DNA from: a virus
Taxonomy: Duplodnaviria > Heunggongvirae > Uroviricota > Caudoviricetes
Virus record (IMG/VR): IMGVR_UViG_2695420763_000018
DNA: 27,432 nucleotides
Reading direction: 5' to 3' (one strand)
Shown in pieces: positions 4,827-27,432 of this stretch (its first letter is position 1; each line of letters begins with the position of its first letter). The translations under genes were made by a program, and so were the position numbers. The notes beneath the pieces are model-generated. The model was not told the DNA's origin. It saw nothing but the letters and a program-made list of their open reading frames with translations, and ran no database searches.

Positions 4827-4829
4827 ACA

Positions 4830-4867
4830 GCCTTGCTTTATGAATAAAACGCACCCCAGCAGCCAGT
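4830..4867 (-). terminator. candidate intrinsic terminator downstream of trkG
   Basis: Stem ccccag (4844-4849) pairs with ctgggg (4862-4867) around a 12-nt loop; on the minus strand it is followed by a U-rich run (plus-strand aataaaac at 4833-4840). Confidence 0.35.
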
Positions 4868-4963
4868 GCTACTGGGGACGGAGGTGTTGCTGGTAAAGTT
4901 AGGTATTGGATCAATGAGTGAGTCAACATAATATTAAACTCACAATTATAAATCAGCCATATA

Positions 4964-6439
4964 TTAGGAGCGCCAAAAAAAACCTGAAAACAATATAATA
5001 ACAGGATAAATTTCAAGGCGACCAAGAATCATAGCTATGCACATTAAACATTTTGCAATGTCATTAAGCACTCCGAATGACGATGCAGTAGCCCCAAAAC
5101 CTAATCCCATATTATTAATACATGCAGCCACTGTTGCAAATGATGTAAGAAAATCATATCCCATACCATTTAACACCAGTATAAAAAACACCGTGAAGAG
5201 AGTATAAAGAAAAAAGAAACTCCATACAGACCTCATTACACGATCTGTAACTATCTTCCCTCCTACATTTACACTCAACAACGCTCTGGGATGAGAAAGC
5301 TGATTTATCTCGTGTTTGCTTTGTTTGAAAAGTATAAGAAATCGAAGTGACTTAATTCCACCACAAGTTGAACCTATACATCCCCCAAAGAAACTTGACA
5401 ACAGCAAAAACACTATCGTGTGCGTGGGCCAACTTGCATAATCCTGCGTAGCTAAACCATTATCAGTGAGCATGGAGCTGGCAAGAAAAAACGAATGAAT
5501 AAAACTTCCATGCAAGTCATACATACCTATATGCCAGACCTGGAAAGAGGTAACAATGATCACCCCTAAGGCTATTAACAGAAAGAAACGAAGTTCAATA
5601 TCTCTGATTAAAGGTTTTATCGTTTTCCTGCTAATAACAATATACCAAAGAGTGAAGTTGAAAGCCGATAGCAGGGAAAAAGAACCAGCCACCAGCTCAA
5701 CCAAATAGTTATTAAAATATCCGATACTCTCGCTATGAGTTGAGAAACCACCAAGCGAAACTGTGGAAATCCCGTGACAAATAGCATCAAACAAAGGCAT
5801 TCCTGCAAGTCTATAACAGACAATACAAGCAATACCTAATAAAGAATAAGTTATCCACAGTGTCCGTGACGTATCGGCCAGGCGGGGAGTGAGTTTGTCA
5901 TCCTTAAATGGCCCCGGCATTTCTGACTGATAAAGCTTTGCACCACCAATACCCAATAATGGCAATACAGCAACCGCCAGAACAATAACTCCTAAACCAC
6001 CTATAAAATTTAACTGTGACCGATAGTACAAATATGCCCGAGGTAATGAACTAACATCATCAATTACAGTTGCTCCTGTTGTTGTTATTCCAGAAACCCC
6101 TTCAAACAGAGCATCAATGAACGTTAAATTAAGTTCTGAGTCAATCCATAAAGGGAATGCACTAATAACAGAAAACAAAATCCAAAACATTACAATTATA
6201 ATAAACCCATCACGGGTACGTAATTGAATGCCAGATTTCTTAGTTGTATACCACGCTCCGCCACCAATGCAAAAAAATATAACGAAAGTTATAAAGAAAA
6301 CGAACAGGCTTTTTTCTTTATAAAACAATGCTACAACCATTGGTGGCAACATTGAAAGACTATAGAGCCAAACCAGGAACCCACACATATGAGTAACAAC
6401 TCTTACATGAGATGTATTCATATCTAAATATTCTTTCAA
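4964..6439 (-). CDS. trkG: Trk-system K+ uptake protein TrkG
   Basis: 491-aa polytopic membrane protein with repeated GxGxxG-like pore segments, recognised as TrkG of Rac; gene and flanks are visibly AT-rich relative to the surrounding phage genes. Confidence 0.9.
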   Translation of the reverse strand: MKEYLDMNTSHVRVVTHMCGFLVWLYSLSMLPPMVVALFYKEKSLFVFFITFVIFFCIGGGAWYTTKKSGIQLRTRDGFIIIVMFWILFSVISAFPLWIDSELNLTFIDALFEGVSGITTTGATVIDDVSSLPRAYLYYRSQLNFIGGLGVIVLAVAVLPLLGIGGAKLYQSEMPGPFKDDKLTPRLADTSRTLWITYSLLGIACIVCYRLAGMPLFDAICHGISTVSLGGFSTHSESIGYFNNYLVELVAGSFSLLSAFNFTLWYIVISRKTIKPLIRDIELRFFLLIALGVIIVTSFQVWHIGMYDLHGSFIHSFFLASSMLTDNGLATQDYASWPTHTIVFLLLSSFFGGCIGSTCGGIKSLRFLILFKQSKHEINQLSHPRALLSVNVGGKIVTDRVMRSVWSFFFLYTLFTVFFILVLNGMGYDFLTSFATVAACINNMGLGFGATASSFGVLNDIAKCLMCIAMILGRLEIYPVIILFSGFFWRS

Positions 6440-6558
6440 TTATAACCACCTTGCTGCAATATTATGATTATACTGTATAAAATTTAACTCCTCTTAGATC
6501 TTACTTCACTGTTCCTTATGAAACAATCATCAAAATGAATCATATTGTAGTTAAGATT

Positions 6559-7023
6559 TTACTTTAAACACTGCTCGGTTATGTATTGCTGAGCACCTTC
6601 AAGTTGGGCCTGCATCATTACCAGTCGTTCCCGGAGGGTGAAATAATCCCGTTCAGCGGTGTCTGCCAGTCGGGGGGAGGCTGCATTATCCACGCCGGAG
6701 GCGGTGGTGGCTTCACGCACTGACTGACAGACTGCTTTGATGTGCAACCGACGACGACCAGCGGCAACATCATCACGCAGAGCATCATTTTCAGCTTTCG
6801 CATCAGCTAACTCCTTCGTGTATTTTGCATCGAGCGCAGCAACATCACGCTGACGCATCTGCATGTCAGTAATTGCCGCGTTCGCCAGCTTCAGTTCTCT
6901 GGCATTTTTGTCGCGCTGGGCTTTGTAGGTAATGGCGTTATCACGGTAATGATTAACAGCCCATGACAGGCAGACGATGATGCAGATAACCAGAGCGGAG
7001 ATAATCGCGGTTACTCTGTTCAT
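6559..7023 (-). CDS. rzpR: i-spanin Rz
   Basis: N-terminal TM segment then coiled-coil-like region. ATG at 7023 overlaps the endolysin TGA stop (ATGA). Intact here, whereas I recall it as truncated in K-12. Confidence 0.8.
6618..6803 (-). CDS. rzoR: o-spanin Rz1 lipoprotein, embedded in the +1 frame of Rz
   Basis: 61-aa ORF wholly inside Rz; signal peptide with lipobox VVVGC and proline-rich mature part (PPPPP, PPP). Confidence 0.8.
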
Positions 7024-7517
7024 TGCTGACCCCACAAACAGATTTCACGCTCAATCTCACGACGAGTCATGAGACCTTTCCATTGCTTACCGCCAGCATA
7101 TGTCCAGCGACGTAGCTGATCACATGCGCCTTTGATATCGCCCTGGTTTATTTTGCGAAGAAGCGTCGATGTTCTGAAATTGCCAGCACCCACGTTGTAA
7201 ACGAATGAGTAAAGAGCGCCGCGCGTTGTTTCCGGTATATCGACTTTGATGTACGTGTTAATTTGTCTGGCGACAGTGGCAAGGTCTTTATTCAAGAGTG
7301 TTTTGCATTCTGCTTTGGTATACGTTTTACCGAGCATGATGTCTTTTCCTGTATGCCCGTGACATACAGTCCATACACCAACAATATCTTTGTATGGTAT
7401 GTAGCTGACACCTTCCAGACCATCGTTACCACTTGGGCCAGTGATTAACACTGATGCTATAGCAATTGCTCCGCCACCAATAGCAGCAGCAACGACTTTT
7501 CGTAATGATGGAGGCAT
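7020..7517 (-). CDS. SAR endolysin (phage 21 R-type lysozyme)
   Basis: 165 aa; N-terminal Gly/Ala-rich signal-anchor-release segment [18 protein letters not shown] followed by a lysozyme catalytic region; closely matches my recollection of R21. Confidence 0.85.
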
Positions 7518-7983: not shown

Positions 7984-8379
7984 CTAACCTCGCATGTCAA
8001 AGCCAGATTTCTGAAAATCTCTGTAGACTTCCGGATTGTTGAAGGCCGGAAATTTGGCTTTATGAGCTGCGGACTTTATCGCTTCGCAATAGGCTTTATC
8101 ACCGTTACTGGTAGATATTTTTAACGCCGTGCCATCCTGAGAGAATTCCATATGCAACCTGCATTTTTTCCCTTTCCAGTTATGCGGCTCATCAAGTTTG
8201 GCATTAATTGCAGCTCTGATTCCCCGCGCTTGCGCCCCCCATTCATCCTGATCATCCCAGCGTCCTGAACTGCAACTACCTGTAGCAGTAGTTTTGTGGC
8301 AATCTGAAGGGTGTAAAGGTGTGCATCCCGCAACAAAACCGACCCAAAAAGTCAACATAACGATTTTCTTTAATCCCAC
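7984..8379 (-). CDS. lipoprotein with TolA-domain-III-like C-terminal domain (paralogue 1)
   Basis: 131 aa; signal peptide with lipobox FVAGC; GTG start at 8379 preceded by GAGGAG at 6-nt spacing. C-terminal half aligns with paralogue 2 (GKxCxLxM...G..L......GD...C.EA..A...A..PA...PEVY..FQ). Confidence 0.7.
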   Translation of the reverse strand: MGLKKIVMLTFWVGFVAGCTPLHPSDCHKTTATGSCSSGRWDDQDEWGAQARGIRAAINAKLDEPHNWKGKKCRLHMEFSQDGTALKISTSNGDKAYCEAIKSAAHKAKFPAFNNPEVYRDFQKSGFDMRG

Positions 8380-8529: not shown

Positions 8530-8958
8530 TCAGGGTTTAAAATCCAGCACCCCATTTTGAAATACTTTATATACTTCCGGCGAAGGGGGGGCAGGTATAT
8601 CAGCATTCTTTATCGCATTCATCGCTTCACGACATAAATCGAGGTCTCCACTTTCTCTTTTAACCTCCAGTAGAAGGCCATTCGGGGCCATATGCATTCT
8701 CAGTGTACACTCTTTTCCTGAATACTTACTCGCATCCCCGAACTGTTTTTCGATGGCGCTCTTGATTTGATGGGCATACAGACGGATATCCTCACTAACA
8801 TCAGAAGTACGTTCAGATGAACTCACATACTGTGTCTCTATTGCTTTATCGGAGTAATATGATGTACGGTCATGATAATTTGTCGATACAGCATCAGTGC
8901 ACCCGATAATAATCCCACTAATAATCAACGTAAGAATTGATGCGCTACGAAAACCCAT
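8530..8958 (-). CDS. lipoprotein with TolA-domain-III-like C-terminal domain (paralogue 2)
   Basis: 142 aa; lipobox IIIGC. C-terminal segment QIKSAIEKQFGDASKYSGKECTLRMHMAPNGLLLEVKRESGDLDLCREAMNAIKNADIPAPPSPEVYKVFQNGVLDFKP closely resembles the TolA C-terminus as I remember it. Confidence 0.75.
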   Translation of the reverse strand: MGFRSASILTLIISGIIIGCTDAVSTNYHDRTSYYSDKAIETQYVSSSERTSDVSEDIRLYAHQIKSAIEKQFGDASKYSGKECTLRMHMAPNGLLLEVKRESGDLDLCREAMNAIKNADIPAPPSPEVYKVFQNGVLDFKP

Positions 8959-10553: not shown

Positions 10554-11096
10554 TCAAGCCATTTTCTCAGCAAATGATTCACGCATGGGAATATATAGGG
10601 CATACTCAGCAACAGCTAACCAATTAGCAATCCGTTTTTCGCATGTGCTAAAACACCACTCTGGGTGTGCATCATTTAGCAATTCAGCCATTTTACGCTT
10701 AGTCATCCCCCGCCCTTCATAGCGTTGCCGGAGAATGCAAATCAATCCTGGATGCTCTGCCAGCACCTCACTTATGACTCGATCAATACATAACGCCTCT
10801 GCATCAGTACAATGCGCCAGCCAGCTCTTTTGCTTGCCGTTGATCATCTCTCGCAAAAACGCTTCCAGCTCAGCTTTCTCTATTCCCGCTTTTTTCATTC
10901 TGCGCAGGGCTTCATTGATGGCTGTTTTCGTCAATTTTTTGGATGCCAACAACTGATTGAACATATTTCCTGACCTGCCACCGCCAATATACGACCAGCG
11001 CCCCCACATACGCAGTTTGCCCTGAATCCAGACACTTTCCAGCGTGGCGAGACGAAGGTGTTCTCCGCTTTTTCCTGTATTCGTTGGGTAAATCAC
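10554..11096 (-). CDS. late-gene antiterminator Q
   Basis: Segment LRMWGRW and downstream region resemble the Q-antiterminator family as I recall it. Proposed start is GTG at 11096 (codon 41 of the tracked ORF), preceded by AGGAGG at 7-nt spacing and overlapping the upstream TGA (GTGA). Confidence 0.65.
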   Translation of the reverse strand: MIYPTNTGKSGEHLRLATLESVWIQGKLRMWGRWSYIGGGRSGNMFNQLLASKKLTKTAINEALRRMKKAGIEKAELEAFLREMINGKQKSWLAHCTDAEALCIDRVISEVLAEHPGLICILRQRYEGRGMTKRKMAELLNDAHPEWCFSTCEKRIANWLAVAEYALYIPMRESFAEKMA

Positions 11097-11383
11097 AAAT
11101 ATCCCTCCTTTCTCCAGATTTCTTGTGTGCGAAAAACACCTTCTGCATGCATCAGGCGTAATTCTTCTTTGGTGTAATCGCTGGTTTTTACCCGCCCGTC
11201 GATTAGATCGTGGCATGAGCTACAGGCAATCGCCGCCTGCATATCGTGTGGTTTTGTCGCTGTTCCGCACGTTCCCGCCAGTCGGTAATGCGCCAGCACA
11301 GACGTTTCCGGATCGTGATTGCAGTAGCCAGGAATTCTGACGGTGCACATCTGCCCCCGCGCCGCTTTACGTAAATCCACCAT
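11093..11383 (-). CDS. YbcO-like (DUF1364) putative nuclease
   Basis: 96 aa with Cys/His cluster (CNHDPETSVLAHYR...CSSCHDLIDG); GGAG 8 nt upstream of ATG 11383; the ATG overlaps the TAA of the upstream gene (TAATG). Confidence 0.65.
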   Translation of the reverse strand: MVDLRKAARGQMCTVRIPGYCNHDPETSVLAHYRLAGTCGTATKPHDMQAAIACSSCHDLIDGRVKTSDYTKEELRLMHAEGVFRTQEIWRKEGYL

Positions 11384-13921: not shown

Positions 13922-14695
13922 ATGACATCCTTTCAATTATCTTTGATTTCTCGTGAAATTGACGGCGAAATAATACATTTACGTGCCAAAGATGGTTACA
14001 TAAACGCCACATCAATGTGTAGAACTGCGGGCAAACTGCTCTCTGATTACACTAGACTCAAAACTACTCAAGAGTTTTTTGACGAATTATCACGCGATAT
14101 GGGAATTCCCATATCGGAGTTAATTCAATCATTTAAAGGTGGAAGACCTGAAAACCAAGGGACATGGGTGCATCCTGACATCGCTATTAATCTAGCGCAG
14201 TGGCTATCGCCCAAATTTGCAGTCCAGGTTTCAAGATGGGTTCGTGAATGGATGTCAGGGGAAAGAACTACAGCAGAAATGCCTGTACATTTAAAACGGT
14301 ACATGGTTAATCGTAGTAGAATTCCTCACACGCACTTTTCTATTCTTAATGAACTGACATTCAACTTGGTTGCACCTCTTGAACAAGCAGGGTACACACT
14401 CCCAGAAAAAATGGTTCCTGACATTTCACAAGGAAGAGTATTTTCACAATGGTTAAGAGATAATAGAAACGTAGAACCCAAAACATTCCCTACCTATGAC
14501 CATGAATATCCCGATGGTCGCGTATACCCTGCAAGGCTGTACCCAAATGAATATTTAGCAGATTTCAAAGAACATTTTAACAATATTTGGTTGCCGCAAT
14601 ATGCCCCGAAATACTTCGCTGACCGGGACAAAAAGGCTCTCGCCTTGATTGAAAAAATTATGCTACCTAACCTCGATGGCAATGAACAGTTCTAA
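13922..14695 (+). CDS. KilA-N domain protein with uncharacterised C-terminal domain
   Basis: N-terminal segment LISREIDGEIIHLRAKDGYINATSMCRTAGKLLSDY...PDIAINLAQWL is KilA-N-like; GAGGAA SD 7 nt upstream; transcribed opposite to its neighbours. Confidence 0.7.
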   Translation: MTSFQLSLISREIDGEIIHLRAKDGYINATSMCRTAGKLLSDYTRLKTTQEFFDELSRDMGIPISELIQSFKGGRPENQGTWVHPDIAINLAQWLSPKFAVQVSRWVREWMSGERTTAEMPVHLKRYMVNRSRIPHTHFSILNELTFNLVAPLEQAGYTLPEKMVPDISQGRVFSQWLRDNRNVEPKTFPTYDHEYPDGRVYPARLYPNEYLADFKEHFNNIWLPQYAPKYFADRDKKALALIEKIMLPNLDGNEQF

Positions 14696-15918: not shown

Positions 15919-16731
15919 TCACTTTTCCGATGCAACATGGCGGGAAGAATCAGTAATCTGTCGTACAATATCCCTGTGCTTGTTCAACTCACGCAGCGCG
16001 GCGCAGACACACTCCCACTTCTGGACATGATTTTTCGCCCGACGCAGTTCGCGGTTTGCCATATGCAGTGATGGTAAAACCAGGTCATCCGCTCGCGTTT
16101 CAGTAAACGATGGCAGCGACTGCACAATGTCCGCCACAGTTTCTGTTTTAATATCTTCCTGTGTTGCAGCCTCCTGTACTGGTATCGCAACACCTGCGGT
16201 CTGAGGAAAGGCCTTACCATCAGTTTCCGCTACCGATGCTGCTTTCGGCTCTGCTGGTAAATTATCGCCCAGTATGCAGTAACGAAATTTACCGCCCTGA
16301 TTTACGCGAATCAGACGACCTTTGCTGATTGCCATTGCCAGCGTTGAAGCCACTTTGCGTGATGTGGTACCAAACAATGTAGCCAGCTCATCAGCCGTTT
16401 GTGGTCCGCGTTGTTCAATCGTCGCGGTTAAATCGCACTCTGAGATTTTCGCTACTGTTGCTGTGGTGGTTTCTTCCGGCAGTTCTACTTGCGCTGGCTG
16501 TTCCTGCTGAACGTTGTTATCAGCCACACGCCAGGTGTACGCGCTTTTATCAACAAAACCAGCCTTTTTCAGTTCCCATAGTTCGTTCAGCACTTCTTCA
16601 CGACTGATATCAAGTCGCGCAGCAAGTTCTATGGATGTGGCTTTTCCCATTGCTTTCAGTGCGTCAAAAACAGTCTCCATTAAATTTTTCTCCCGGTAAA
16701 AATTACTTCGCAATTCCTGGCTGGACGACAT
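15919..16731 (-). CDS. hypothetical protein with two winged-helix-like segments (270 aa); possibly the intact counterpart of K-12 ydaW
   Basis: Two segments resembling winged-helix DNA-binding domains ([32 protein letters not shown] and [31 protein letters not shown]); overlaps the ydaV stop. The ydaW assignment is a guess from gene order. Confidence 0.5.
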
Positions 16732-17449
16732 TCGGACGCCAGCTCTCCCAGTTAAAATTCACCCATCGCCCGCCGTTCATGGTCATGCGATCCATAATCC
16801 GCTCGCCGAGCAATGTTTTCATGGCCTCATAGTTCAGGTTTGTCAGCATCCCCACGCAGCGCATCGACGCTGTCCGGCGATCAACAATCTGGTGCAGTAC
16901 CACCTGCTCGTTTTTCGTCTCGCGCTGAATGCCAATTTCATCAAGAACCAGCAGATCCACTTCGCACAGTTCCCGCAAAAATTTTTCGCCTGACTGCCCA
17001 TCGTCATAGCTGGCGTGCAGGGCACTCATAACATCAGCCACGGTAACCACAATCACTGTCTGACCGTCTTTCAGCAGGCGATTCCCGATAGCTGCCGCTA
17101 AGTGGTTCTTCCCGGTACCAGGTTTTCCGCTGAACGCAAAATTTGTACACCCGGTCATCAGTTCATCAGCGATGGATTTCGCCTGACTCAACGCGTATCG
17201 CTGCCCTTCGTTCTGCACCTGGTAATTCGAAAACGAGCATTTGCGGTGCAATGGCTGGATGCCAGAGCGATTCAGAATTTTTTCCACCCGCAACTGACGA
17301 TTCTGACGGTTGATCTCCTCACAACGTTTCTGGCCTTCGGAAAGTTGCCACTCGCGCCACTCCGCTACCGTCTTGAATGGCGCGGTTACATGTGACGGGG
17401 CCAGTCTGCGGATACGTTCAAGAACATCGCCTGTCGCAATATTTTTCAT
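16703..17449 (-). CDS. ydaV: DnaC-like helicase loader (IstB-type AAA+ ATPase)
   Basis: Walker [16 protein letters not shown] and Walker [10 protein letters not shown]; recognised as Rac YdaV. Confidence 0.85.
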
Positions 17450-17455
17450 GGTCAG

Positions 17456-18313
17456 TTACCCCCTGAAGCCTGGCGGGATCGCACTATCCGGTAACGAGAC
17501 GGTGTTAACCTGTCGGAATAACGTCTCAGGTCGAACACCTTTCGGCGCGAACAAGCCCTGGTATTCATTGGCGATGCTGTGTCGAATCACCTGCTCAGGT
17601 GAAAAACCCTGCTGGCGGAATTTTTCCAGCTCCCGTATCGCCCCGTTAGCGCCCTGCTCCGTTCGAATCGGTTTTCGCAATGCCTGGCGAAATTCAACCC
17701 ACTCACGCCAAAGCGAGACAGAAATCCAGTTCGGCAAAGTAATATCCAGAGGGTCAAACTTTTTGACACCTCGATTCCCCCGGGGGGGATTTAGGGGGGG
17801 ATCTGTTTTTAGATCTTTATCTGTATCTTTATTAGTTGCCTTTGTGTTGACATCATGTTCAAACACCACTTCAACATCTGTTTGAACACCTGTTAAATTT
17901 CTCTCTTGTTTTGTTTGAACATCTGCTTCCTTTCTGCTTCTTCTGGCCTGAACAGATGCTTTTCCTGCGGCTGATTTTTTGGTTAATTTTTCCCTGACTG
18001 ATGCCAGATCTTCCTCAATCCGAAGATGCACCCATTCCTCGCCGTTATCGCAAAAAAACTCCTGCAAGGATGGTTCAACATCAGCCCATCGCTCGTTAGT
18101 CAGACGGGCAATTTTTGCCAGCCTGTTTTTAGGTATTGGCTTTCCTGTTTGCCAGTAATTGAACATCAGCAACAAATACGCACCATGCTCCTCTGCTGAC
18201 AAATGCATGGTGTCAGCCAGGTAATCAGCTATGTACAGTTGCATGTATGGTAATGCGGCCATAATTGCCCCGTATGATGCTGCCCGGTGGCTTAGAATAA
18301 GCACAAACAGCAT
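17456..18313 (-). CDS. ydaU: replication initiation protein (lambda O-like role)
   Basis: 285-aa ORF recognised as Rac YdaU; sits directly upstream of the DnaC-like gene as O/P-type replication modules do. Confidence 0.8.
   Translation of the reverse strand: MLFVLILSHRAASYGAIMAALPYMQLYIADYLADTMHLSAEEHGAYLLLMFNYWQTGKPIPKNRLAKIARLTNERWADVEPSLQEFFCDNGEEWVHLRIEEDLASVREKLTKKSAAGKASVQARRSRKEADVQTKQERNLTGVQTDVEVVFEHDVNTKATNKDTDKDLKTDPPLNPPRGNRGVKKFDPLDITLPNWISVSLWREWVEFRQALRKPIRTEQGANGAIRELEKFRQQGFSPEQVIRHSIANEYQGLFAPKGVRPETLFRQVNTVSLPDSAIPPGFRG
17856..17921. repeat. three copies of a 10-bp quasi-palindrome TGTT(C/T)(A/G)AACA inside ydaU (iteron-like; candidate origin)
   Basis: tgttcaaaca 17856-17865, tgtttgaaca 17879-17888, tgtttgaaca 17912-17921; preceded by GGATCT...AGATCT (17800-17816) and two G7 runs (17782-17788, 17794-17800). 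Confidence 0.45.
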
Positions 18314-18325
18314 GGAAACTTTTGC

Positions 18326-18748
18326 TTAATGAACAATGACAGAATCGTCGGAAGAACCGCCGCCGCTGAAATGCGCTTTCCGGTAAACGGCTTGGACTGC
18401 ATCATCATGCGCATCAATTGCCGTACTTAACGCTTCCTGCGCCGCCAGTAATGCACGGCGTTCCAGGGTATCGAAGATGCAGAGTCGGTGACGCAGCTCG
18501 CGCGGAAGGATTGCCAGAATTGCTGGGATCAGCTTCTGAATTTTTTCTCTTTGCGTTTTCGTTTCACCTTTCAACCAACGGTGATAGATATTCTGCTGAT
18601 TGTTCCAGTCCTTGCCTGGAACCAGGGGCAATTCGCCGCCCCCCTGGCGCAGATATTCTTCAGTAATTGCATTGGCTACCCATGCCTGCCCTTTTTCGGC
18701 TGCTAGGGCAAACAACACTGATTCGATGTGCTCATGCTTGATTTTCAT
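18326..18748 (-). CDS. ydaT: YdaT (toxic Rac protein)
   Basis: 140-aa ORF recognised as Rac YdaT; immediately downstream of ydaS on the same strand. Confidence 0.85.
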   Translation of the reverse strand: MKIKHEHIESVLFALAAEKGQAWVANAITEEYLRQGGGELPLVPGKDWNNQQNIYHRWLKGETKTQREKIQKLIPAILAILPRELRHRLCIFDTLERRALLAAQEALSTAIDAHDDAVQAVYRKAHFSGGGSSDDSVIVH

Positions 18749-18770
18749 GAATCATTTGCCTCTTGATGTT

Positions 18771-19067
18771 TCAGGTATGATCAAATGAGGATTTGTTACT
18801 GTCATTTAGTTGCTTCACTGACATATTCTGCGAACAACATGCCGAACGTCGTAAATATGACCAGTCAATATCAGGACGAAGTTCTTCGCACAGAACCTCA
18901 CCTCTTGTTGCACGTTCAATTGCTGGACATCTCTCGGCAGGCAATTGACGTACCCCTTTGATCCATTGATTTACGCTTGGAGGTGATACACCTAAAAGCC
19001 TAGCCATTGCTGATTGCCCACCGACAACAGCACAAGCTTGCTTGAATGAATAGTTCTCTTTTTTCAT
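18771..19067 (-). CDS. ydaS: YdaS, Cro-like HTH protein
   Basis: 98-aa ORF with HTH segment QSAMARLLGVSPPSVNQWIKG; divergent from racR. Confidence 0.85.
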   Translation of the reverse strand: MKKENYSFKQACAVVGGQSAMARLLGVSPPSVNQWIKGVRQLPAERCPAIERATRGEVLCEELRPDIDWSYLRRSACCSQNMSVKQLNDSNKSSFDHT

Positions 19068-19096
19068 CGAATGAACTCCAAAAACACACAGAAATA

Positions 19097-19161
19097 TTAG
19101 GCGACGCCTAACGCAATTGTCAATAGGCTGTGCCTAATGCGGTAAGGGTAGGGATTGCCTA
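19097..19161. promoter_or_regulatory. three operator-like sites TAGGC-N3-GCCTA in the ydaS/racR divergent promoter region
   Basis: TTAGGCGACGCCTAA (19097-19111), ATAGGCTGTGCCTAA (19123-19137), TAGGGATTGCCTA (19149-19161, one mismatch); centre-to-centre spacing about 25-26 bp. Confidence 0.6.
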
Positions 19162-19190
19162 ATGTAATGCGCATAGGAGAATATTAAGCA

Positions 19191-19667
19191 ATGCTTAGTG
19201 GTAAAGACTTAGGCCGAGCGATAGAGCAGGCCATTAACAAAAAAATCGCATCGGGATCCGTCAAATCAAAGGCGGAGGTCGCACGCCACTTTAAAGTCCA
19301 ACCACCATCAATTTATGACTGGATTAAGAAAGGCTCTATAAGTAAAGATAAACTTCCAGAATTATGGCGTTTCTTTTCTGATGTTGTTGGTCCAGAGCAT
19401 TGGGGGCTTAACGAATACCCCATACCAACCCCCACCAATTCAGATACAAAAAGTGAACTTTTAGATATAAACAACCTTTATCAAGCAGCCTCTGATGAAA
19501 TAAGAGCGATTGTAGCTTTCCTGTTATCTGGAAATGCTACAGAACCAGATTGGGTTGACCACGATGTTCGCGCCTACATAGCAGCGATGGAAATGAAAGT
19601 GGGTAAGTATCTGAAAGCTCTTGAATCTGAACGGAAAAGCCAGAACATCACAAAAACTGGAACTTAA
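19191..19667 (+). CDS. racR: Rac prophage repressor RacR
   Basis: 158-aa ORF recognised as RacR; HTH near the N-terminus; divergent from ydaS. Confidence 0.9.
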   Translation: MLSGKDLGRAIEQAINKKIASGSVKSKAEVARHFKVQPPSIYDWIKKGSISKDKLPELWRFFSDVVGPEHWGLNEYPIPTPTNSDTKSELLDINNLYQAASDEIRAIVAFLLSGNATEPDWVDHDVRAYIAAMEMKVGKYLKALESERKSQNITKTGT

Positions 19668-19764
19668 ACTTATATGGTCTGACGGAAAACTCCTGGATTC
19701 CGTTATTTAACCCCCCCATCACTTTCTGCTGTCGCCATCACCTATTAGGTTACGCTCAAAACAT

Positions 19765-19802
19765 TAGGCATAGCCTATTGACAATCAATTAGGCATTACC
19801 TA
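19765..19802. promoter_or_regulatory. two further operator-like sites downstream of racR
   Basis: TAGGCATAGCCTA (19765-19777) and TAGGCATTACCTA (19790-19802), 25 bp apart; 19762-19784 is a 22/23 inverted copy of 19127-19149. Confidence 0.55.
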
Positions 19803-19975
19803 TAGTTCCAGCATACCACCCACCCCGCCCCACAGAACGCCGGGCAATACTTCGAGTTACCAGGCAGTGATAAGGGGTTAAGTAGCCAGCCCGAGGCGTA
19901 TGAACATGACGGCGGGATTCAAATTTTGCAGTGCAGCAGTTAGTTCCGCCACCCGGCGTTAAGGGGAGAGATAAG

Positions 19976-20110
19976 ATGGTGCATTACGAAGTAGTTCAGT
20001 ATTTGATGGATTGTTGCGGTATCACTTACAACCAGGCTGTGCAGGCTTTACGCAGCAACGACTGGGATCTCTGGCAGGCAGAAGTCGCTATACGTAGCAA
20101 CAAGATGTGA
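19976..20110 (+). CDS. ydaG: small protein YdaG (44 aa)
   Basis: ATG 19976 preceded by GGGGAGAG; product MVHYEVVQYLMDCCGITYNQAVQALRSNDWDLWQAEVAIRSNKM; matches the length and position of K-12 ydaG. Not in the supplied ORF track (under 60 aa). Confidence 0.6.
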   Translation: MVHYEVVQYLMDCCGITYNQAVQALRSNDWDLWQAEVAIRSNKM

Positions 20111-20120
20111 GATTCGCAAA

Positions 20121-20276
20121 ATGCAAAAAATCGACCTCGGCAACAACGAATCCCTGGTGTGCGGCGTGTTCCCCAACCAGGATGGAACGTTCACTGCCAT
20201 GACGTATACCAAAAGCAAAACATTTAAAACCGAAACTGGTGCGCGCCGATGGTTGGAGAAGCACACAGTAAGCTAA
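20121..20276 (+). CDS. ydaF: small protein YdaF (51 aa)
   Basis: ATG 20121 begins 10 nt after the ydaG stop; product MQKIDLGNNESLVCGVFPNQDGTFTAMTYTKSKTFKTETGARRWLEKHTVS. Confidence 0.6.
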   Translation: MQKIDLGNNESLVCGVFPNQDGTFTAMTYTKSKTFKTETGARRWLEKHTVS

Positions 20277-20761
20277 CGATTAAAACGTCTACTCCTGCTG
20301 TTCCAGAATAACTTCATAAAATGGGAGTATTTTTCGGTGACGAGATAATAAGAACAGTTTGCGCTATCACTCTGATGTTGAATGATGCCCTTCCGTTCTA
20401 ATTTTTTCATAACCGGGTTACGGCAAGGAGAAGTGATAATAAGATTTCCTGTTTTAAGGAAATCTTTAAATACAGCGATTTCTTTCTCAGATAAACGAAG
20501 CAATACTCGTTGCTCTGGTAGTAATGAATAATGCTTTTGAATATGTGCTCGCAATCTTGAGAAGGAAATGGCGACCACGAAAGAAAAGGCAAAAACGATA
20601 ATCTGAAAGAGCCAAGGTATTTCAGTATAAGCATTGAATGCGACAGTAAACTCTTTCGGTATCAGCCAGAGAGTGAGACCAAAAATGATAATCGTATACA
20701 TAAGTCTTTCGAGTGGCTCGTTAGCAAAAAGTTTCAACAATGGAGTAAATACATCCAACAT
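20273..20761 (-). CDS. sieB: superinfection exclusion protein SieB
   Basis: Membrane protein; start placed at the internal ATG 20761 (162 aa) because the 41 codons upstream in the tracked ORF are not SieB-like; convergent 4-nt overlap with ydaF. Confidence 0.75.
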   Translation of the reverse strand: MLDVFTPLLKLFANEPLERLMYTIIIFGLTLWLIPKEFTVAFNAYTEIPWLFQIIVFAFSFVVAISFSRLRAHIQKHYSLLPEQRVLLRLSEKEIAVFKDFLKTGNLIITSPCRNPVMKKLERKGIIQHQSDSANCSYYLVTEKYSHFMKLFWNSRSRRFNR

Positions 20762-21202
20762 ATCAATAACTCTCAACTGTAAGGGTATTGAAATGTTAAC
20801 ACAAGCTCTCGCTGTAGGGGTATAGCCGAGACCACCGAAGCCCGGAGGTGGTGAAATAAAACCGGGCACAACACGAAGGCGCATTTCCGATATCCATAAA
20901 GAGTCGGTCTTGTCTGTTAAATTTAAATGGTGGGAGTGCGCCTCCGGTTGTAAATAACGACATTGCTGTGTGTAGTCCTGGCGGCATCAGTTTTTTTCTT
21001 GAAGTTCGGCTGATGTCCGCCCTTTTTAAAGTGAATTTTGTGATGCGGTGAATGCGGCTAAGCGCACGTGGCACAGTTAAAAGTCATGTTAGTCCTTATT
21101 GGTTTGGGTGGGAAAGCCGACTGTAATTGTTAACTGGTTGCAGTCACCTGGAGGCACCAGACACCGCATCAACAAAGTTCATTTGTAAAAATGGAGATAA
21201 TT

Positions 21203-21424
21203 ATGATTGCACATCACTTCGGAACTGATGAAATACCACGTCAGTGTGTGACTCCTGGCGATTATGTTCTTCATGAAGGCCGGACATATATTGCCTCGGC
21301 AAACAATATTAAAAAGCGAAAACTATATATTCGTAACCTGACCACAAAAACATGCATTACTGACCGCATGATTAAAGTCTTCCTCGGTCGTGATGGTTTA
21401 CCTGTAAAGGCGGAGTCATGGTGA
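21203..21424 (+). CDS. kilR: KilR, FtsZ-targeting killing protein
   Basis: 73 aa from [26 protein letters not shown]...; GGAG 8 nt upstream of ATG 21203. Confidence 0.85.
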
Positions 21425-21594
21425 TGACTAAGAAAATAAAATGTGCTTACCACCTTTGCAAAAAAGACGTTGAAGAAAGCAAAGCTATTGAAAGAATGCT
21501 TCACTTCATGCACGGGATTTTATCAAAAGACGAACCGAGAAAATATTGCAGTGAAGCTTGTGCCGAAAAAGACCAGATGGCACATGAACTTTAA
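21424..21594 (+). CDS. ydaE: YdaE, small Cys-rich protein (56 aa)
   Basis: ATG 21424 overlaps the kilR TGA (TGATG); product [56 protein letters not shown]. Confidence 0.7.
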   Translation: MTKKIKCAYHLCKKDVEESKAIERMLHFMHGILSKDEPRKYCSEACAEKDQMAHEL

Positions 21595-21668
21595 TTAATT
21601 AACTATTCGAAACTGAATTTATGCCAGAAATGGCAGGTATTCGCTCAACCTTAATTAAGGAGAAAAAC

Positions 21669-21944
21669 ATGATTACCAATTATGAAGCCACTGTTGTAAC
21701 TACCGATGACATTGTTCACGAGGTGAATCTGGAAGGAAAGCGCATTGGCTACGTAATTAAAACAGAAAATAAAGAAACCCCATTCACTGTGGTTGATATC
21801 GATGGTCCATCAGGCAACGTAAAAACACTTGATGAAGGTGTCAAAAAAATGTGCCTGGTGCATATCGGAAAGAATCTGCCCGCAGAAAAAAAAGCCGAAT
21901 TTCTGGCAACTCTAATTGCAATGGAATTAAAAGGTGAAATCTGA
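21669..21944 (+). CDS. racC: RacC
   Basis: 91 aa from MITNYEATVVTTDD...; AAGGAG 7 nt upstream of ATG 21669. Confidence 0.8.
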   Translation: MITNYEATVVTTDDIVHEVNLEGKRIGYVIKTENKETPFTVVDIDGPSGNVKTLDEGVKKMCLVHIGKNLPAEKKAEFLATLIAMELKGEI

Positions 21945-22045
21945 AAGAAATAGCCTGCGTATGGCACAGGCTATGAACAGTGTGTATCCGGCAAGATCAT
22001 TCACTGAACAAAACGAATTTTAATCTGAGTTGAGGTTAAAAAACA

Positions 22046-24646
22046 ATGAGCACAAAACCACTCTTCCTGTTACGGAAAGCGAAAAAATCATCCGGTGAAC
22101 CTGACGTCGTCCTGTGGGCAAGCAACGATTTTGAATCGACCTGTGCCACTCTGGACTACCTGATCGTTAAGTCAGGTAAAAAACTGAGCAGCTATTTTAA
22201 AGCTGTTGCCACGAATTTTCCTGTCGTTAATGACCTGCCCGCTGAAGGTGAGATCGATTTTACCTGGAGTGAACGCTATCAACTCAGCAAAGACTCCATG
22301 ACATGGGAACTAAAACCGGGAGCAGCACCAGACAACGCTCACTATCAAGGCAATACCAACGTCAACGGCGAAGACATGACTGAGATTGAGGAGAATATGC
22401 TACTCCCAATTTCTGGCCAGGAACTGCCCATTCGTTGGCTTGCTCAACACGGCAGCGAAAAACCGGTAACGCACGTTTCACGCGACGGACTCCAGGCATT
22501 ACACATTGCTCGGGCTGAAGAACTACCGGCTGTTACTGCCCTGGCTGTTTCCCACAAAACCAGCCTGCTCGACCCGCTGGAAATTCGCGAACTCCACAAA
22601 CTGGTTCGTGACACTGACAAAGTTTTCCCTAATCCTGGTAATTCAAACCTGGGACTGATAACTGCTTTTTTCGAAGCATACCTGAACGCTGACTACACCG
22701 ATCGAGGACTGCTGACAAAAGAGTGGATGAAGGGTAATCGTGTTTCACACATCACTTGCACGGCTTCCGGTGCTAATGCTGGCGGCGGAAACCTCACCGA
22801 TCGCGGCGAAGGTTTCGTACACGATCTGACGTCACTGGCGCGCGACGTAGCCACTGGCGTACTGGCCCGTTCAATGGATCTGGACATCTATAACCTTCAT
22901 CCGGCACACGCTAAACGCATTGAGGAAATTATCGCTGAAAATAAACCGCCCTTTTCTGTTTTCCGCGACAAATTCATCACCATGCCTGGCGGGCTGGATT
23001 ATTCCCGCGCCATCGTGGTTGCGTCCGTAAAAGAAGCACCAATTGGGATCGAGGTCATCCCCGCGCACGTCACTGAATATCTGAACAAAGTACTGACTGA
23101 AACCGATCATGCCAACCCTGATCCGGAAATCGTGGATATTGCCTGCGGTCGCTCCTCTGCCCCGATGCCGCAGCGAGTAACAGAAGAAGGAAAACAGGAT
23201 GATGAAGAAAAACCGCAACCATCTGGAACAACGGCAGTTGAACAGGGAGAGGCTGAAACAATGGAACCGGACGCAACTGAACATCATCAGGACACGCAGC
23301 CGCTGGATGCTCAGTCACAGGTAAATTCTGTTGATGCGAAATATCAGGAACTGCGGGCAGAACTCCATGAAGCCCGGAAAAACATTCCATCAAAAAATCC
23401 TGTCGATGCCGATAAATTGCTTGCTGCATCACGTGGTGAATTTGTTGACGGAATTAGCGACCCGAACGATCCGAAATGGGTAAAGGGGATCCAGACTCGC
23501 GATTGTGTGTACCAGAACCAGCCAGAAACGGAAAAAACCAGCCCAGATATGAATCAACCTGAGCCAGTAGTGCAACAGGAACCGGAAATAGCCTGCAATG
23601 CCTGCGGCCAGACTGGCGGGGATAACTGCCCTGACTGTGGTGCGGTGATGGGCGACGCAACATACCAGGAAACATTCGATGAAGAGAGTCAGGTTGAAGC
23701 TAAGGAAAATGATCCGGAGGAAATGGAAGGCGCTGAACATCCGCACAATGAGAATGCTGGCAGCGATCCGCATCGCGATTGCAGTGATGAAACTGGCGAA
23801 GTCGCAGATCCCGTAATCGTAGAAGACATAGAGCCAGGTATTTATTACGGAATTTCGAATGAGAATTACCACGCGGGTCCCGGTATCAGTAAGTCTCAGC
23901 TCGATGACATTGCTGATACTCCGGCACTATATTTGTGGCGTAAAAATGCCCCCGTGGACACCACAAAGACAAAAACGCTCGATTTAGGAACTGCTTTCCA
24001 CTGCCGGGTACTTGAACCGGAAGAATTCAGTAACCGCTTTATCGTAGCACCTGAATTTAACCGCCGTACAAACGCCGGAAAAGAAGAAGAGAAAGCGTTT
24101 CTGATGGAATGCGCAAGCACAGGAAAAACGGTTATCACTGCGGAAGAAGGCCGGAAAATTGAACTCATGTATCAAAGCGTTATGGCTTTGCCGCTGGGGC
24201 AATGGCTTGTTGAAAGCGCCGGACACGCTGAATCATCAATTTACTGGGAAGATCCTGAAACAGGAATTTTGTGTCGGTGCCGTCCGGACAAAATTATCCC
24301 TGAATTTCACTGGATCATGGACGTGAAAACTACGGCGGATATTCAACGATTCAAAACCGCTTATTACGACTACCGCTATCACGTTCAGGATGCATTCTAC
24401 AGTGACGGTTATGAAGCACAGTTTGGAGTGCAGCCAACTTTCGTTTTTCTGGTTGCCAGCACAACTATTGAATGCGGACGTTATCCGGTTGAAATTTTCA
24501 TGATGGGCGAAGAAGCAAAACTGGCAGGTCAACAGGAATATCACCGCAATCTGCGAACCCTGTCTGACTGCCTGAATACCGATGAATGGCCAGCTATTAA
24601 GACATTATCACTGCCCCGCTGGGCTAAGGAATATGCAAATGACTAA
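22046..24646 (+). CDS. recE: exodeoxyribonuclease VIII (RecE)
   Basis: 866-aa ORF recognised as RecE, with the nuclease domain in the C-terminal third. Confidence 0.95.
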
Positions 24647-25448
24647 GCAACCACCAATCGCAAAAGCCGATCTGCAAAAAACTCAGGGAAACCGTGCACC
24701 AGCAGCAGTTAAAAATAGCGACGTGATTAGTTTTATTAACCAGCCATCAATGAAAGAGCAACTGGCAGCAGCTCTTCCACGCCATATGACGGCTGAACGT
24801 ATGATCCGTATCGCCACCACAGAAATTCGTAAAGTTCCGGCGTTAGGAAACTGTGACACTATGAGTTTTGTCAGTGCGATCGTTCAGTGTTCACAGCTCG
24901 GACTTGAGCCAGGTAGCGCCCTCGGTCATGCATATTTACTGCCTTTTGGTAATAAAAACGAAAAGAGCGGTAAAAAGAACGTTCAGCTAATCATTGGCTA
25001 TCGCGGCATGATTGATCTGGCTCGCCGTTCTGGTCAAATCGCCAGCCTGTCAGCCCGTGTTGTCCGTGAAGGTGACGAGTTTAGCTTCGAATTTGGCCTT
25101 GATGAAAAGTTAATACACCGCCCGGGAGAAAACGAAGATGCCCCGGTTACCCACGTCTATGCTGTCGCAAGACTGAAAGACGGAGGTACTCAGTTTGAAG
25201 TTATGACGCGCAAACAGATTGAGCTGGTGCGCAGCCTGAGTAAAGCTGGTAATAACGGGCCGTGGGTAACTCACTGGGAAGAAATGGCAAAGAAAACGGC
25301 TATTCGTCGCCTGTTCAAATATCTGCCCGTATCAATTGAGATCCAGCGTGCAGTATCAATGGATGAAAAGGAACCACTGACAATCGATCCTGCAGATTCC
25401 TCTGTATTAACCGGGGAATACAGTGTAATCGATAATTCAGAGGAATAA
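24639..25448 (+). CDS. recT: single-strand annealing protein RecT
   Basis: 269 aa from [16 protein letters not shown]...; its ATG overlaps the last codons of recE by 8 nt. Confidence 0.95.
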
Positions 25449-25504
25449 TTCAGCCTGGCGGTGTAATGCACCGCCAACTTGAAATATTTTTTATGAGAAA
25501 AATT

Positions 25505-25699
25505 ATGAGATATGACAATGTTAAACCATGTCCATTTTGTGGTTGTCCATCAGTAACGGTGAAAGCCATTTCAGGATATTACCGAGCGAAGTGTAACGGA
25601 TGCGAATCCCGAACCGGTTATGGTGGAAGTGAAAAAGAAGCACTCGAAAGATGGAATAAACGAACCACTGGAAATAATAATGGAGGTATTCATGTATAA
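25505..25699 (+). CDS. ralR: RalR (Lar), restriction alleviation protein and type I TA toxin
   Basis: 64 aa from MRYDNVKPCPFCGCPSVTVKAISGYYRAKCNGCES...; zinc-ribbon-like Cys pairs. Confidence 0.85.
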   Translation: MRYDNVKPCPFCGCPSVTVKAISGYYRAKCNGCESRTGYGGSEKEALERWNKRTTGNNNGGIHV

Positions 25700-25901
25700 A
25701 ATTACCGCCACTATTGAAAAGGAAGGTGGCACTCCTACTAACTGGACAAGATATTCAAAATCTAAACTAACGAAATCAGAATGCGAAAAAATGCTCTCAG
25801 GTAAAAAAGAAGCAGGCGTTTCCAGAGAGCAGAAAGTAAAACTGATAAATTTTAATTGCGAGAAACTTCAGTCCTCGAGAATTGCATTGTATTCAAATTA
25901 A
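25692..25901 (+). CDS. ydaC: YdaC
   Basis: 69 aa from MYKITATIEKEGG...; GGAGGT SD; its ATG overlaps the ralR stop region. Confidence 0.75.
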   Translation: MYKITATIEKEGGTPTNWTRYSKSKLTKSECEKMLSGKKEAGVSREQKVKLINFNCEKLQSSRIALYSN

Positions 25902-25913
25902 AACTTCATAGCT

Positions 25914-25927
25914 GATTATTAATAATC
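25914..25927. promoter_or_regulatory. perfect 14-bp palindrome GATTATTAATAATC upstream of xisR/intR
   Basis: Exact palindrome in the ydaC-xisR intergenic spacer. Confidence 0.4.
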
Positions 25928-25979
25928 AACATCGGGCGTCAATTTCAGTCTAACATTGGCGCCTGCCAGAGGTGATGCG

Positions 25980-26195
25980 ATGGCACAAGTAATCTTTAAT
26001 GAAGAGTGGATGGTTGAATACGGCCTGATGCTTCGCACTGGTCTGGGGGCCAGACAAATTGAAGCATACCGCCAGAACTGTTGGGTGGAGGGCTTCCACT
26101 TCAAACGAGTATCTCCTTTAGGTAAGCCAGACAGCAAACGAGGGATTATCTGGTACAACTATCCAAAGATAAATCAGTTTATCAAAGACTCATGA
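25980..26195 (+). CDS. xisR: excisionase XisR
   Basis: 71 aa from [32 protein letters not shown]...; GAGGTG SD; its TGA overlaps the intR start region (TGATATG). Confidence 0.85.
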
Positions 26196-26196
26196 T

Positions 26197-27432
26197 ATGT
26201 CTAAATTACCAACAGGTGTCGAGATTAGAGGTAGATACATTCGCATCTGGTTCATGTTTCGAGGAAAACGATGTCGGGAAACATTAAAAGGCTGGGAGAT
26301 TACAAACAGTAATATTAAAAAGGCCGGAAATTTAAGAGCGCTGATAGTTCATGAAATAAACTCCGGTGAATTTGAGTATTTAAGACGTTTTCCCCAGTCC
26401 AGCACTGGGGCAAAAATGGTGACAACGAGAGTCATAAAAACGTTCGGAGAGCTTTGTGATATCTGGACAAAAATTAAAGAGACAGAGTTAACAACAAACA
26501 CAATGAAGAAAACGAAATCACAATTAAAAACACTCAGAATAATAATTTGTGAAAGTACCCCGATATCACATATTCGTTATAGCGATATCTTAAACTACCG
26601 GAATGAACTGCTGCATGGAGAAACGCTTTACCTGGATAATCCAAGATCCAACAAAAAAGGAAGAACCGTGCGCACAGTTGATAACTATATCGCCCTGCTC
26701 TGTTCGCTGTTGCGTTTTGCGTATCAGTCGGGATTTATATCAACCAAACCATTTGAAGGAGTAAAAAAATTACAGCGAAACAGAATAAAGCCTGATCCGT
26801 TATCTAAAACAGAATTCAATGCATTAATGGAAAGTGAAAAAGGACAGAGCCAGAACTTGTGGAAATTTGCCGTTTACTCAGGACTTCGTCACGGGGAACT
26901 GGCAGCTCTGGCGTGGGAGGATGTGGATCTCGAAAAGGGAATAGTGAATGTCAGAAGAAACCTGACGATACTTGATATGTTCGGTCCCCCAAAAACAAAT
27001 GCCGGGATCCGAACAGTAACACTACTGCAGCCTGCTCTTGAAGCACTGAAGGAGCAATACAAACTGACCGGGCATCATCGCAAAAGCGAAATCACCTTTT
27101 ATCATCGGGAGTACGGCAGAACCGAAAAGCAAAAACTGCATTTTGTTTTCATGCCCAGGGTGTGTAACGGAAAACAAAAACCTTATTACTCGGTAAGCAG
27201 TTTGGGGGCAAGGTGGAATGCAGCAGTAAAACGTGCTGGTATTCGCCGCCGTAATCCGTACCATACGCGGCATACTTTTGCCTGCTGGCTGTTGACGGCA
27301 GGAGCGAACCCGGCATTTATAGCCAGCCAAATGGGGCATGAAACTGCGCAGATGGTGTATGAAATTTACGGTATGTGGATTGATGACATGAACGACGAAC
27401 AGATAGCCATGTTGAATGCGCGCTTATCGTAG
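26197..27432 (+). CDS. intR: tyrosine integrase IntR
   Basis: 411-aa ORF; C-terminal catalytic region with HTRHTFACWLL...GHETAQMVYEIYGMW (R...HxxR...Y arrangement); stop codon is the last triplet of the window. Confidence 0.95.
   Translation: MSKLPTGVEIRGRYIRIWFMFRGKRCRETLKGWEITNSNIKKAGNLRALIVHEINSGEFEYLRRFPQSSTGAKMVTTRVIKTFGELCDIWTKIKETELTTNTMKKTKSQLKTLRIIICESTPISHIRYSDILNYRNELLHGETLYLDNPRSNKKGRTVRTVDNYIALLCSLLRFAYQSGFISTKPFEGVKKLQRNRIKPDPLSKTEFNALMESEKGQSQNLWKFAVYSGLRHGELAALAWEDVDLEKGIVNVRRNLTILDMFGPPKTNAGIRTVTLLQPALEALKEQYKLTGHHRKSEITFYHREYGRTEKQKLHFVFMPRVCNGKQKPYYSVSSLGARWNAAVKRAGIRRRNPYHTRHTFACWLLTAGANPAFIASQMGHETAQMVYEIYGMWIDDMNDEQIAMLNARLS

Follow-up and report, generated by a model that had tools for sequence, protein, structure and literature searches.

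Where in a Rac-type prophage does replication begin? Rac is among the most studied cryptic prophages, known for recET, for racR/ydaST toxicity and for its excision, and its origin, oriJ, was reportedly defined genetically by cloning, in work said to be that of Diaz and Pritchard in the late 1970s and of Potrykus et al. in 2000. The question was addressed here in a 27,432-nucleotide stretch of viral DNA (IMG/VR record IMGVR_UViG_2695420763_000018; Caudoviricetes), referred to in its entirety as the window, whose replication module is 99.8% identical to that of K-12 Rac. An initial annotation of this DNA had proposed a candidate prophage origin inside ydaU, a putative replication initiator gene. 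Our computational analysis supports that proposal on the grounds of conservation as DNA, co-variation and a lambda-like layout, and we put at roughly 70% the probability that positions 17777-17955 are the replication origin of the Rac-type prophage, lying within the stretch that encodes the flexible linker of its initiator, YdaU. Any Rac fragment able to replicate by itself has to include the initiator genes together with their cis site. We infer that oriJ, as defined genetically, most likely corresponds to the ydaU segment.

The most conspicuous part of the segment is a cluster of repeats. The pattern TGTTYRAACA has three matches in the window, all inside 17856-17921, where they span 66 bp about halfway along ydaU (nt 393-458 of 858). 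The exact copies and their degenerate neighbors are:

17856-17865, plus strand: repeat copy 1, TGTTCAAACA, opposite in orientation to copies 2 and 3, read in another frame as V-F-E-H
17879-17888, plus strand: repeat copy 2, TGTTTGAACA, read as G-V-Q-T
17912-17921, plus strand: repeat copy 3, TGTTTGAACA, the first in the coding direction, read as D-V-Q-T
17867-17876, plus strand: degenerate copy, CACTTCAACA, with the half-site TTCAACA, 11-12 bp from its neighbors
17945-17954, plus strand: possible weak half-site, GGCCTGAACA (low confidence), coding within the conserved KASVQ peptide and matching the 12-mer family at gene nt 354

Because TGTTTGAACA is the reverse complement of TGTTCAAACA, the three exact copies are a single 10-mer present in both orientations, with TGTT and AACA arms flanking an asymmetric 2-bp center, and they occupy two reading frames. 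The family CAGATGTTCA has four copies at no more than one mismatch, including the degenerate copy at 17867-17876, and a longer unit, TTSAACAYCTG, is common to the repeat copies. With the two degenerate copies counted, the spacing among exact and degenerate copies is 11, 12 and 33 bp.

Three matches to TGTTYRAACA compare with 0.35 expected in the window, and the ydaU cluster is the only site in the window where any 9- or 10-mer recurs exactly, three or more times, inside 100 bp. None of 5000 mononucleotide shuffles of ydaU gave three copies within 70 bp, and neither did any of 5000 synonymous-codon permutations in which the protein was kept. A peptide repeat cannot explain the copies, because they are translated as DVQT, as GVQT and, inverted and in another frame, as VFEH.

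Next to the repeats lies a region of low duplex stability. The guanine-plus-cytosine (GC) content is 30-35% over 17800-17940 versus 50-58% in the flanks, and the following features were placed in it:

17801-17855, no strand assigned: AT-rich tract, a candidate DNA-unwinding element, encoding TNKDTDKDLK, its DNA conserved across genera
17799-17816, no strand assigned: two Dam sites, GGATCT at 17799-17804 and AGATCT at 17811-17816, their starts separated by 12 bp, on the border of the AT-rich tract
17805-17819, no strand assigned: mosaic junction, placed by a megablast break and by comparisons with Rac-SA53 and phage 673R7

The 40-mer at 17799-17838 is the least stable duplex within 16700-19200 and stands at the 98.75th percentile of the window. 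Relatives too have GATC sites at this place, one or two in each, and the sequence ACTAATAAAGATACAGATACAGATCTAAAAGA of the tract is conserved in them. Other signals looked for in and around the tract gave little. A match to the oriC-type 13-mer (GATCTnTTnTTTT) at 17800-17812, GATCTGTTTTTAG, fits at 11 of 13 positions, but the window has 16 such matches versus 15.8 expected, and the candidate was dropped. The DnaA box TTWTNCACA is absent from 16700-19200 and occurs twice elsewhere in the window (3.6 expected). No sigma-70-like promoter site was found in 17400-18400, and the idea of an intragenic promoter with operators was rejected.

The same architecture recurs in relatives. We gathered ydaU-family genes from phage records, from a set of genomes with one per species, and from Betaproteobacteria. 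All relatives of the DUF1376 type (from Escherichia, Citrobacter, Enterobacter, Kluyvera, Pantoea, Rahnella, Klebsiella, Pseudomonas phages and Bordetella/Achromobacter) show clustered repeats, their core being GTT(C/G)AAC, in a constant position of the gene just after the conserved peptide AAGKAS, and then, where the GC content of the gene is lowest, a tract that is AT-rich or of simple sequence, whichever of several unrelated C-terminal modules (C-modules) they carry. The Rahnella gene has three exact copies of CGACCGTTCAACG at 11- and 22-bp spacing and in different frames (DRST, TVQR), the Pantoea gene has six consecutive 11-bp units, and those of Bordetella and Achromobacter have copies of the GTTCAAC/GTTGAAC type followed by AACCAR repeats with a period of 6 or 7 bp. 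When 4-mer autocorrelation was computed over linker nt 336-435 of 13 genes, peaks appeared at lags of 11, 22 and 33/34; the 11-bp period of the linker is that of the DNA helix and not a codon repeat. The density of GTTSAAC is 11.6 per kb in the linker versus 0.35 per kb elsewhere. Codons were also aligned for 11 genes of different genera. Where two sequences shared an amino acid, their codons were identical in 87% of cases for the repeat zone, 86% for the AT tract and 51% for the N-domain, and the linker is far more variable than the N-domain in amino-acid sequence despite this higher codon identity. The codon statistics of the linker run opposite to ordinary coding constraint.

Two further observations were made on the repeats of these genes. 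At the GC minimum of the betaproteobacterial ydaU linkers (nt about 375-415 in genes L038 and L040 of our set; also L006 and L039) there are 7-bp AACCAAG/AACCAAT or 6-bp AACCAG repeats, and a 7-bp period, sitting inside an open reading frame (ORF), clearly marks a repeat at the level of DNA. A C5..C5-GCAAGC-G5 palindrome follows them in L006, L039 and L040 and is degenerate in L038. Outside the linker, more copies of the repeat family, TGGTTCAACATCAGC and TAATTGAACATCAGC, lie at 18071-18085 and 18156-18170 of the window in DUF1376-coding DNA, and the Rahnella gene and that of a Pseudomonas phage have a GTTGAAC pair 11 bp apart at gene nt 184/195, in the same place of their DUF1376 DNA. These internal copies may constitute a second, weaker binding cluster.

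The YdaU C-module is also found behind two other types of N-domain, both without a Pfam family. Genes of type B, which start with MASNWIKLEVITPDKPE (phage 673R7, Mixta, Erwinia, Shigella; four in our set), have copies of GTAACGCT/AGCGTTAC in the equivalent place, and the type C gene of Superficieibacter, which starts with MANSWLRLWHDMPNDPKW, has GGTCACGA, AGTCACGA and GGTCACAA at 10-bp spacing. In both types a purine- or AT-rich tract with GATC sites comes next and the C-runs come last. Because types B and C carry repeats of their own together with the same C-runs, the repeat sequence goes with the N-domain and the C-runs with the C-domain. Downstream of genes with the YdaU-type C-module comes a gene for a DnaC-like loader. 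In Rac-SA53, whose C-module is another one, the gene in that place is different. The sample for these comparisons is small. The point at which the modules join can be located closely. Megablast matches in E. coli genomes break at query positions 362-365, which are 17817-17820 of the window and lie inside the AT tract; Rac-SA53 diverges right after GATCTAAAA, and phage 673R7 is similar only from ATCYCCCCCTAAATCCCCC onward. In these comparisons the N-domain, the repeats and the AT tract travel as one module, and the C/G-runs and the C-domain as another.

Such a junction raises the alternative that survives best, namely that the DNA element is real but that its job is not initiation: it could be a joint for module exchange, kept uniform by the recombination of lambdoid phages at this site, a set of sites for YdaU autoregulation or one for a host nucleoid protein. 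We regard this as unlikely. A joint would fit the break in homology between N- and C-modules falling exactly in the AT tract, the near-identity of ACTAATAAAGATACAGATACAGATCTAAAAGA in genes that are otherwise 45-70% identical, and the recombination points that are annotated in the AT tract of the lambda origin too. It predicts, however, neither 11-bp phased repeats nor repeats that change with the type of N-domain, and it leaves unexplained why distant lineages again have the GC minimum, there made of unrelated simple sequences such as (GATACA)n, (AACCAG)n and AACCAAG repeats of 7 bp. Also against this alternative is the lack of a promoter-like site in 17400-18400. Joint and origin are in any case not exclusive, the lambda origin also being a crossover site.

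On the far side of the AT tract from the repeats stands a third element, which begins the C-module:

17777-17800, no strand assigned: C5G7-ATTTA-G7 element with the CCCCCGGGGG palindrome, encoding PPLNPPRG, the start of the C-module

The two G7 runs are at 17782-17788 and 17794-17800, and on the minus strand they are ydaU codons 172-173 and 176-177 (CCC CCC), which yield PPLNPP. The C-module starts with the motif PPLNPP(R/K)G whichever of the three N-domain types precedes it, and does so in the Bordetella phage as well. Among nine genes, 26 of the 31 prolines within the motif (84%) are encoded by CCC versus 17 of 117 elsewhere (15%); in ydaU of the window the counts are 4/4 and 0/13. In most of the nine genes a G-run after the C-runs forms a GC palindrome, which is CCCCCGGGGG in the window and CCCCCGCAAGCGGGGG in Bordetella and one Achromobacter gene; it is absent from phage 673R7 and the other Achromobacter gene. 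Because the prolines of the motif are biased toward CCC and the palindrome recurs, the C-runs are maintained as DNA too. Taken together, the sequence comparisons show that the DNA of the repeats, the AT tract and the C-runs is conserved to a greater degree than the protein requires.

The initial annotation had read the G7 runs as coding PPLNPP on the minus strand, which the codon positions bear out. It also had GGATCT...AGATCT and the two runs preceding the repeats; both are present, but the runs do not merely precede the repeats, since they open the C-terminal module. A G-quadruplex was considered and rejected: G7-ATTTA-G7 formally satisfies G3N1G3N5G3N1G3, but the runs of relatives are no longer than C5/C6, so that this is not the conserved property. 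C-modules of other kinds (the DnaT-domain type of Rac-SA53; L013-L018) are without twin C-runs and have (AG)n and alternating GCGCGC after the AT tract, so some GC-rich element appears always to follow that tract.

Homopolymer runs are prone to slippage, and the initial annotation had pointed out that a frameshift here could inactivate ydaU and had suggested a survey of tract length across strains. In such a survey, 17762-17830 was identical in 629 of 704 E. coli genomes. Among four variants sampled were one with a first run of G8 and another with a second run of G6, and both genes are annotated as frameshifted, although these alleles come from genome assemblies, in which homopolymer errors are possible. 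In addition, ydaU is frameshifted at codon 178 of 285 in a laboratory strain evolved under heat (PMC10044804). That codon is 17780-17782, at the junction of the runs (C7/G5). At the level of sequence the suspicion is supported: a one-base slip in a 7-nt run would truncate YdaU before its C-domain and so disable the replicon. The runs may constitute a homopolymer contingency (phase-variable) locus, of the kind in which a varying run of at least 7 bases switches its gene off.

The protein and its gene neighborhood are those of a replication initiator and its helicase loader, as far as can be predicted:

17456-18313, minus strand: ydaU, putative replication initiator, 285 amino acids (aa); evidence from ORF, Pfam, PHROG, PDB match and AlphaFold
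18002-18250, minus strand: DUF1376-coding DNA, a predicted winged helix and presumed origin-binding domain
16703-17449, minus strand: ydaV, DnaC/IstB-like helicase loader (Pfam IstB_IS21, E 2e-19; PHROG DnaC-like helicase loader, E 5e-85)

The gene ydaV is downstream of ydaU, and upstream are ydaT, ydaS and then the divergent racR. The window's ydaU is 99.9% identical to that of K-12 Rac, a single base (17518) differing, outside the feature. Pfam places DUF1376 at aa 22-104 of YdaU (E 2.7e-26), PHROG 'replication initiation O-like' profiles match aa 112-259, and aa 210-285 align weakly with the C-domain of DnaT (PDB 2ru8, E 0.003; 9zbt, E 0.011). A structure was predicted with AlphaFold from a 47-sequence alignment. 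The diverse homologues for it were gathered by a protein search with the Bordetella phage homologue, a YdaU query having returned near-identical E. coli entries only, and its numbering starts from MAALPYMQ (add 17 for the 285-aa numbering). The N-domain was modeled confidently as three helices and a beta hairpin (predicted local distance difference test, pLDDT, about 90), and the C-domain was confident too; the DUF1376 N-domain is accordingly predicted to be a winged-helix fold. The overall layout is a DUF1376 N-domain, a long helix, a disordered linker and a C-domain like those of DnaT and O-like initiators. At model residues 127-164 (144-181 in the 285-aa numbering), which correspond to 17771-17884 of the window, pLDDT falls below 50. 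The initial annotation had placed three copies of TGTT(C/T)(A/G)AACA within 66 bp, inside a low-complexity, linker-like stretch in mid-ydaU; all three were found at the positions it gave, and the model agrees about the linker. YdaV is presumed to be the partner of the YdaU C-domain.

On the analogy of lambda, binding, unwinding and helicase loading at the ydaU site could proceed as follows. Transcription from the RacR-repressed ydaS promoter would make YdaU and YdaV and would also cross the origin. YdaU, probably as a dimer, would use its winged-helix DUF1376 N-domain to bind the TGTTYRAACA quasi-palindromes, its targets being the three exact copies and one or two of the degenerate ones. The resulting complex would strain the adjacent AT-rich tract at 17801-17855, which would open, and the DnaT-like C-domain of YdaU would recruit the complex of DnaC-like YdaV with DnaB, so that the helicase is loaded. 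For the twin C/G runs and their CCCCCGGGGG palindrome our guess is that they delimit the opening on its GC-rich far side, or else form a site linked to the C-domain.

The remaining alternatives concern where oriJ is and whether the segment acts as DNA at all. De Paepe et al. (2014) describe primers 'framing oriJ', and these map to 17038-17192 in ydaV, giving a 155-bp amplicon 0.6-0.9 kb from the segment proposed here. This is the sole published position for oriJ that we found in the literature reached, and it would suit a view in which the Rac origin lies elsewhere, in ydaV or an intergenic region, the ydaU repeats being relics or coincidence. We think that rather improbable. The amplicon falls in the Walker-A coding region, is about 50% GC and contains no repeat cluster; it was rejected as oriJ for being without origin-like features, and any Rac amplicon serves for copy-number measurement by the polymerase chain reaction, so that the wording 'framing oriJ' may be loose. 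Elsewhere in the window no other cluster of at least three 9- or 10-mers was found, and the module has no DnaA box. Last, the disfavored view that the segment has no function as DNA, being a repetitive peptide linker (DVQT/GVQT) with plain proline codons for G-runs, can claim that it encodes a disordered, low-complexity linker, that two of the three copies give similar tetrapeptides and that PPLNPP is conserved as protein, but it is very improbable given an inverted third copy in the other frame (VFEH), synonymous recodings that never keep three copies, a period in relatives of 11 or 7 bp that is not a multiple of three, synonymous sites whose conservation is higher for the linker than for the structured domain, and the CCC bias of the motif.

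Several other points weigh against placing the origin in ydaU. No base-level map or sequence-level description of oriJ was found in the literature reached, and a 2026 preprint calls K-12 Rac replication-deficient. The compared genes are homologous, and the enrichment and codon statistics are accordingly not drawn from independent samples. Rac-SA53 keeps only two of the three exact copies, and most enterobacterial relatives keep one exact GTTSAAC with degenerate neighbors. The ten weakest segments in the window as a whole do not include the AT tract. At 10 bp (10-14 bp), the ydaU sites are short beside the 18-19-bp iterons of lambda. YdaU has no detectable sequence similarity to lambda O by BLASTP (E 0.75), on which ground homology of the two was rejected, and its Foldseek matches were not significant.

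The prophage that carries this module is not that of E. coli K-12 itself. K-12 was at first entertained as the identity of the window, wrongly, for K-12 Rac is matched only by two segments, 16231-27313 and 4573-7003, at 99.6-99.8% identity. The remainder holds genes for terminase and lysis and a Q-like gene, which makes the window a more complete prophage of the Rac type. The small and large terminase genes are at 645-3021, lysozyme and Rz at 6559-7517, a Q-like DUF1133 gene at 10554-11216 and a KilA-N gene at 13922-14695. Nearest to the whole window are the phage records vB_EcoS-666R9/673R7 and avian pathogenic E. coli (APEC) genomes. The homologue of ydaW at 15919-16731 is intact (270 aa; DUF1627, E 3e-96); the K-12 copy is annotated as a truncated pseudogene.

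A few other loci in the window deserve mention. The only other 8-mer cluster consists of three copies of TCTGCGCA in 2820-2871, together with TGCGCA/TGCACA variants and T5-T7 runs between them. It lies in the 5' part of the minus-strand ORF 1927-3021, whose small-terminase domain starts only at residue 122, and it could be a pac or terminase-binding site, or else the true start codon of that ORF could be further downstream. The minus-strand ORF 3212-4420 is a TET-associated glycosyltransferase (PF20691, E 3e-34) and adjoins a ParB_N-domain ORF at 4365-4826; the pair may be a DNA-modification module in the Rac-type prophage. TolA C-terminal domains, unusual as phage cargo, occur in two adjacent minus-strand ORFs at 7984-8379 and 8530-8958.

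Placing oriJ in a 180-bp segment makes the initiator role of YdaU, the function of DUF1376 and the loss of excised Rac testable. The cross-genus comparison also provides a rule for annotating origins in phages with initiators of the DUF1376 type and of the two unnamed types. A broader proposition, on which we are evenly divided, is that DUF1376 proteins are a widespread, uncharacterised family of winged-helix phage initiators in Gamma- and Betaproteobacteria, with three-part origins inside their linkers that recombine in the unwinding tract, and with homopolymer runs that act as a reversible off-switch for replication. If this is true, the three conserved parts would be repeats with a GTT(C/G)AAC core in a phase of ~11 bp, an unwinding tract of AT-rich or simple sequence and, moving together with the DnaT-like C-module, a C-run/GC palindrome. 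Recombination within the unwinding tract would produce new pairings of initiator and origin, and the twin runs would also be a switch, built into the gene, that turns prophage replication off reversibly. The cross-genus comparison shows, besides, how a single DNA stretch can be a protein linker, an origin and a recombination joint together.

How does the ydaU site compare with known systems? Plasmid iterons are usually direct repeats of 17-22 bp outside the rep gene, often accompanied by DnaA boxes. The ydaU sites differ from such origins (those of RepA, pi, TrfA and pSK41-type Rep) in lying inside an ORF and having no DnaA box. A possible role of DUF1376 proteins as plasmid Rep proteins was looked into as well, with only 15 plasmid records, mostly of megaplasmids, and was uninformative. 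E. coli DnaT (primosomal protein I) resembles YdaU through the weak match to aa 210-285, and the Rac-SA53 allele has a Pfam DnaT domain; YdaU differs from it in having an unrelated N-domain and belonging to a phage replication module.

The closest parallel is the origin of lambda and of lambdoid/Shiga toxin (Stx) phages. As a positive control, the same scan was run on lambda gene O, where it recovered the four annotated iterons (nt 349-433 of 900) and a GC minimum at nt 441; the lambda record also has two recombination points annotated in the AT tract after the iterons. The initial annotation had likened the arrangement to the lambda origin within gene O, and the likeness is close. In both, the origin, a candidate one in ydaU, falls within the gene of the initiator, where the linker joining N- and C-domains is encoded, and the repeats come before the AT-rich tract in the coding direction at an almost equal distance from the start codon (nt 393-458 in ydaU, 349-433 in lambda). 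In both, too, the repeats have dyad symmetry, in ydaU as quasi-palindromes that are candidate binding sites, and are of a type tied to the N-domain, a helicase-loader gene comes next and crossover points fall in the AT tract, as the ydaU junction does. The differences lie in the parts themselves. YdaU has DUF1376 only, whereas lambda O is a Phage_rep_O protein (PF04492); the ydaU repeats are of another sequence and occur in both orientations; the loader is DnaC/IstB-like in Rac and P in lambda; and the twin C/G-run and GC palindrome after the Rac AT tract are without a lambda counterpart in the stretch compared. The ydaU site would by this analogy work like the lambda origin, yet it stands outside the lambda O/ori sequence family. 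The proposed in-gene design is the one known from lambda, and a different initiator family (DUF1376 winged helix), shorter repeats and the added, slippage-prone twin C/G-run element set the ydaU site apart.

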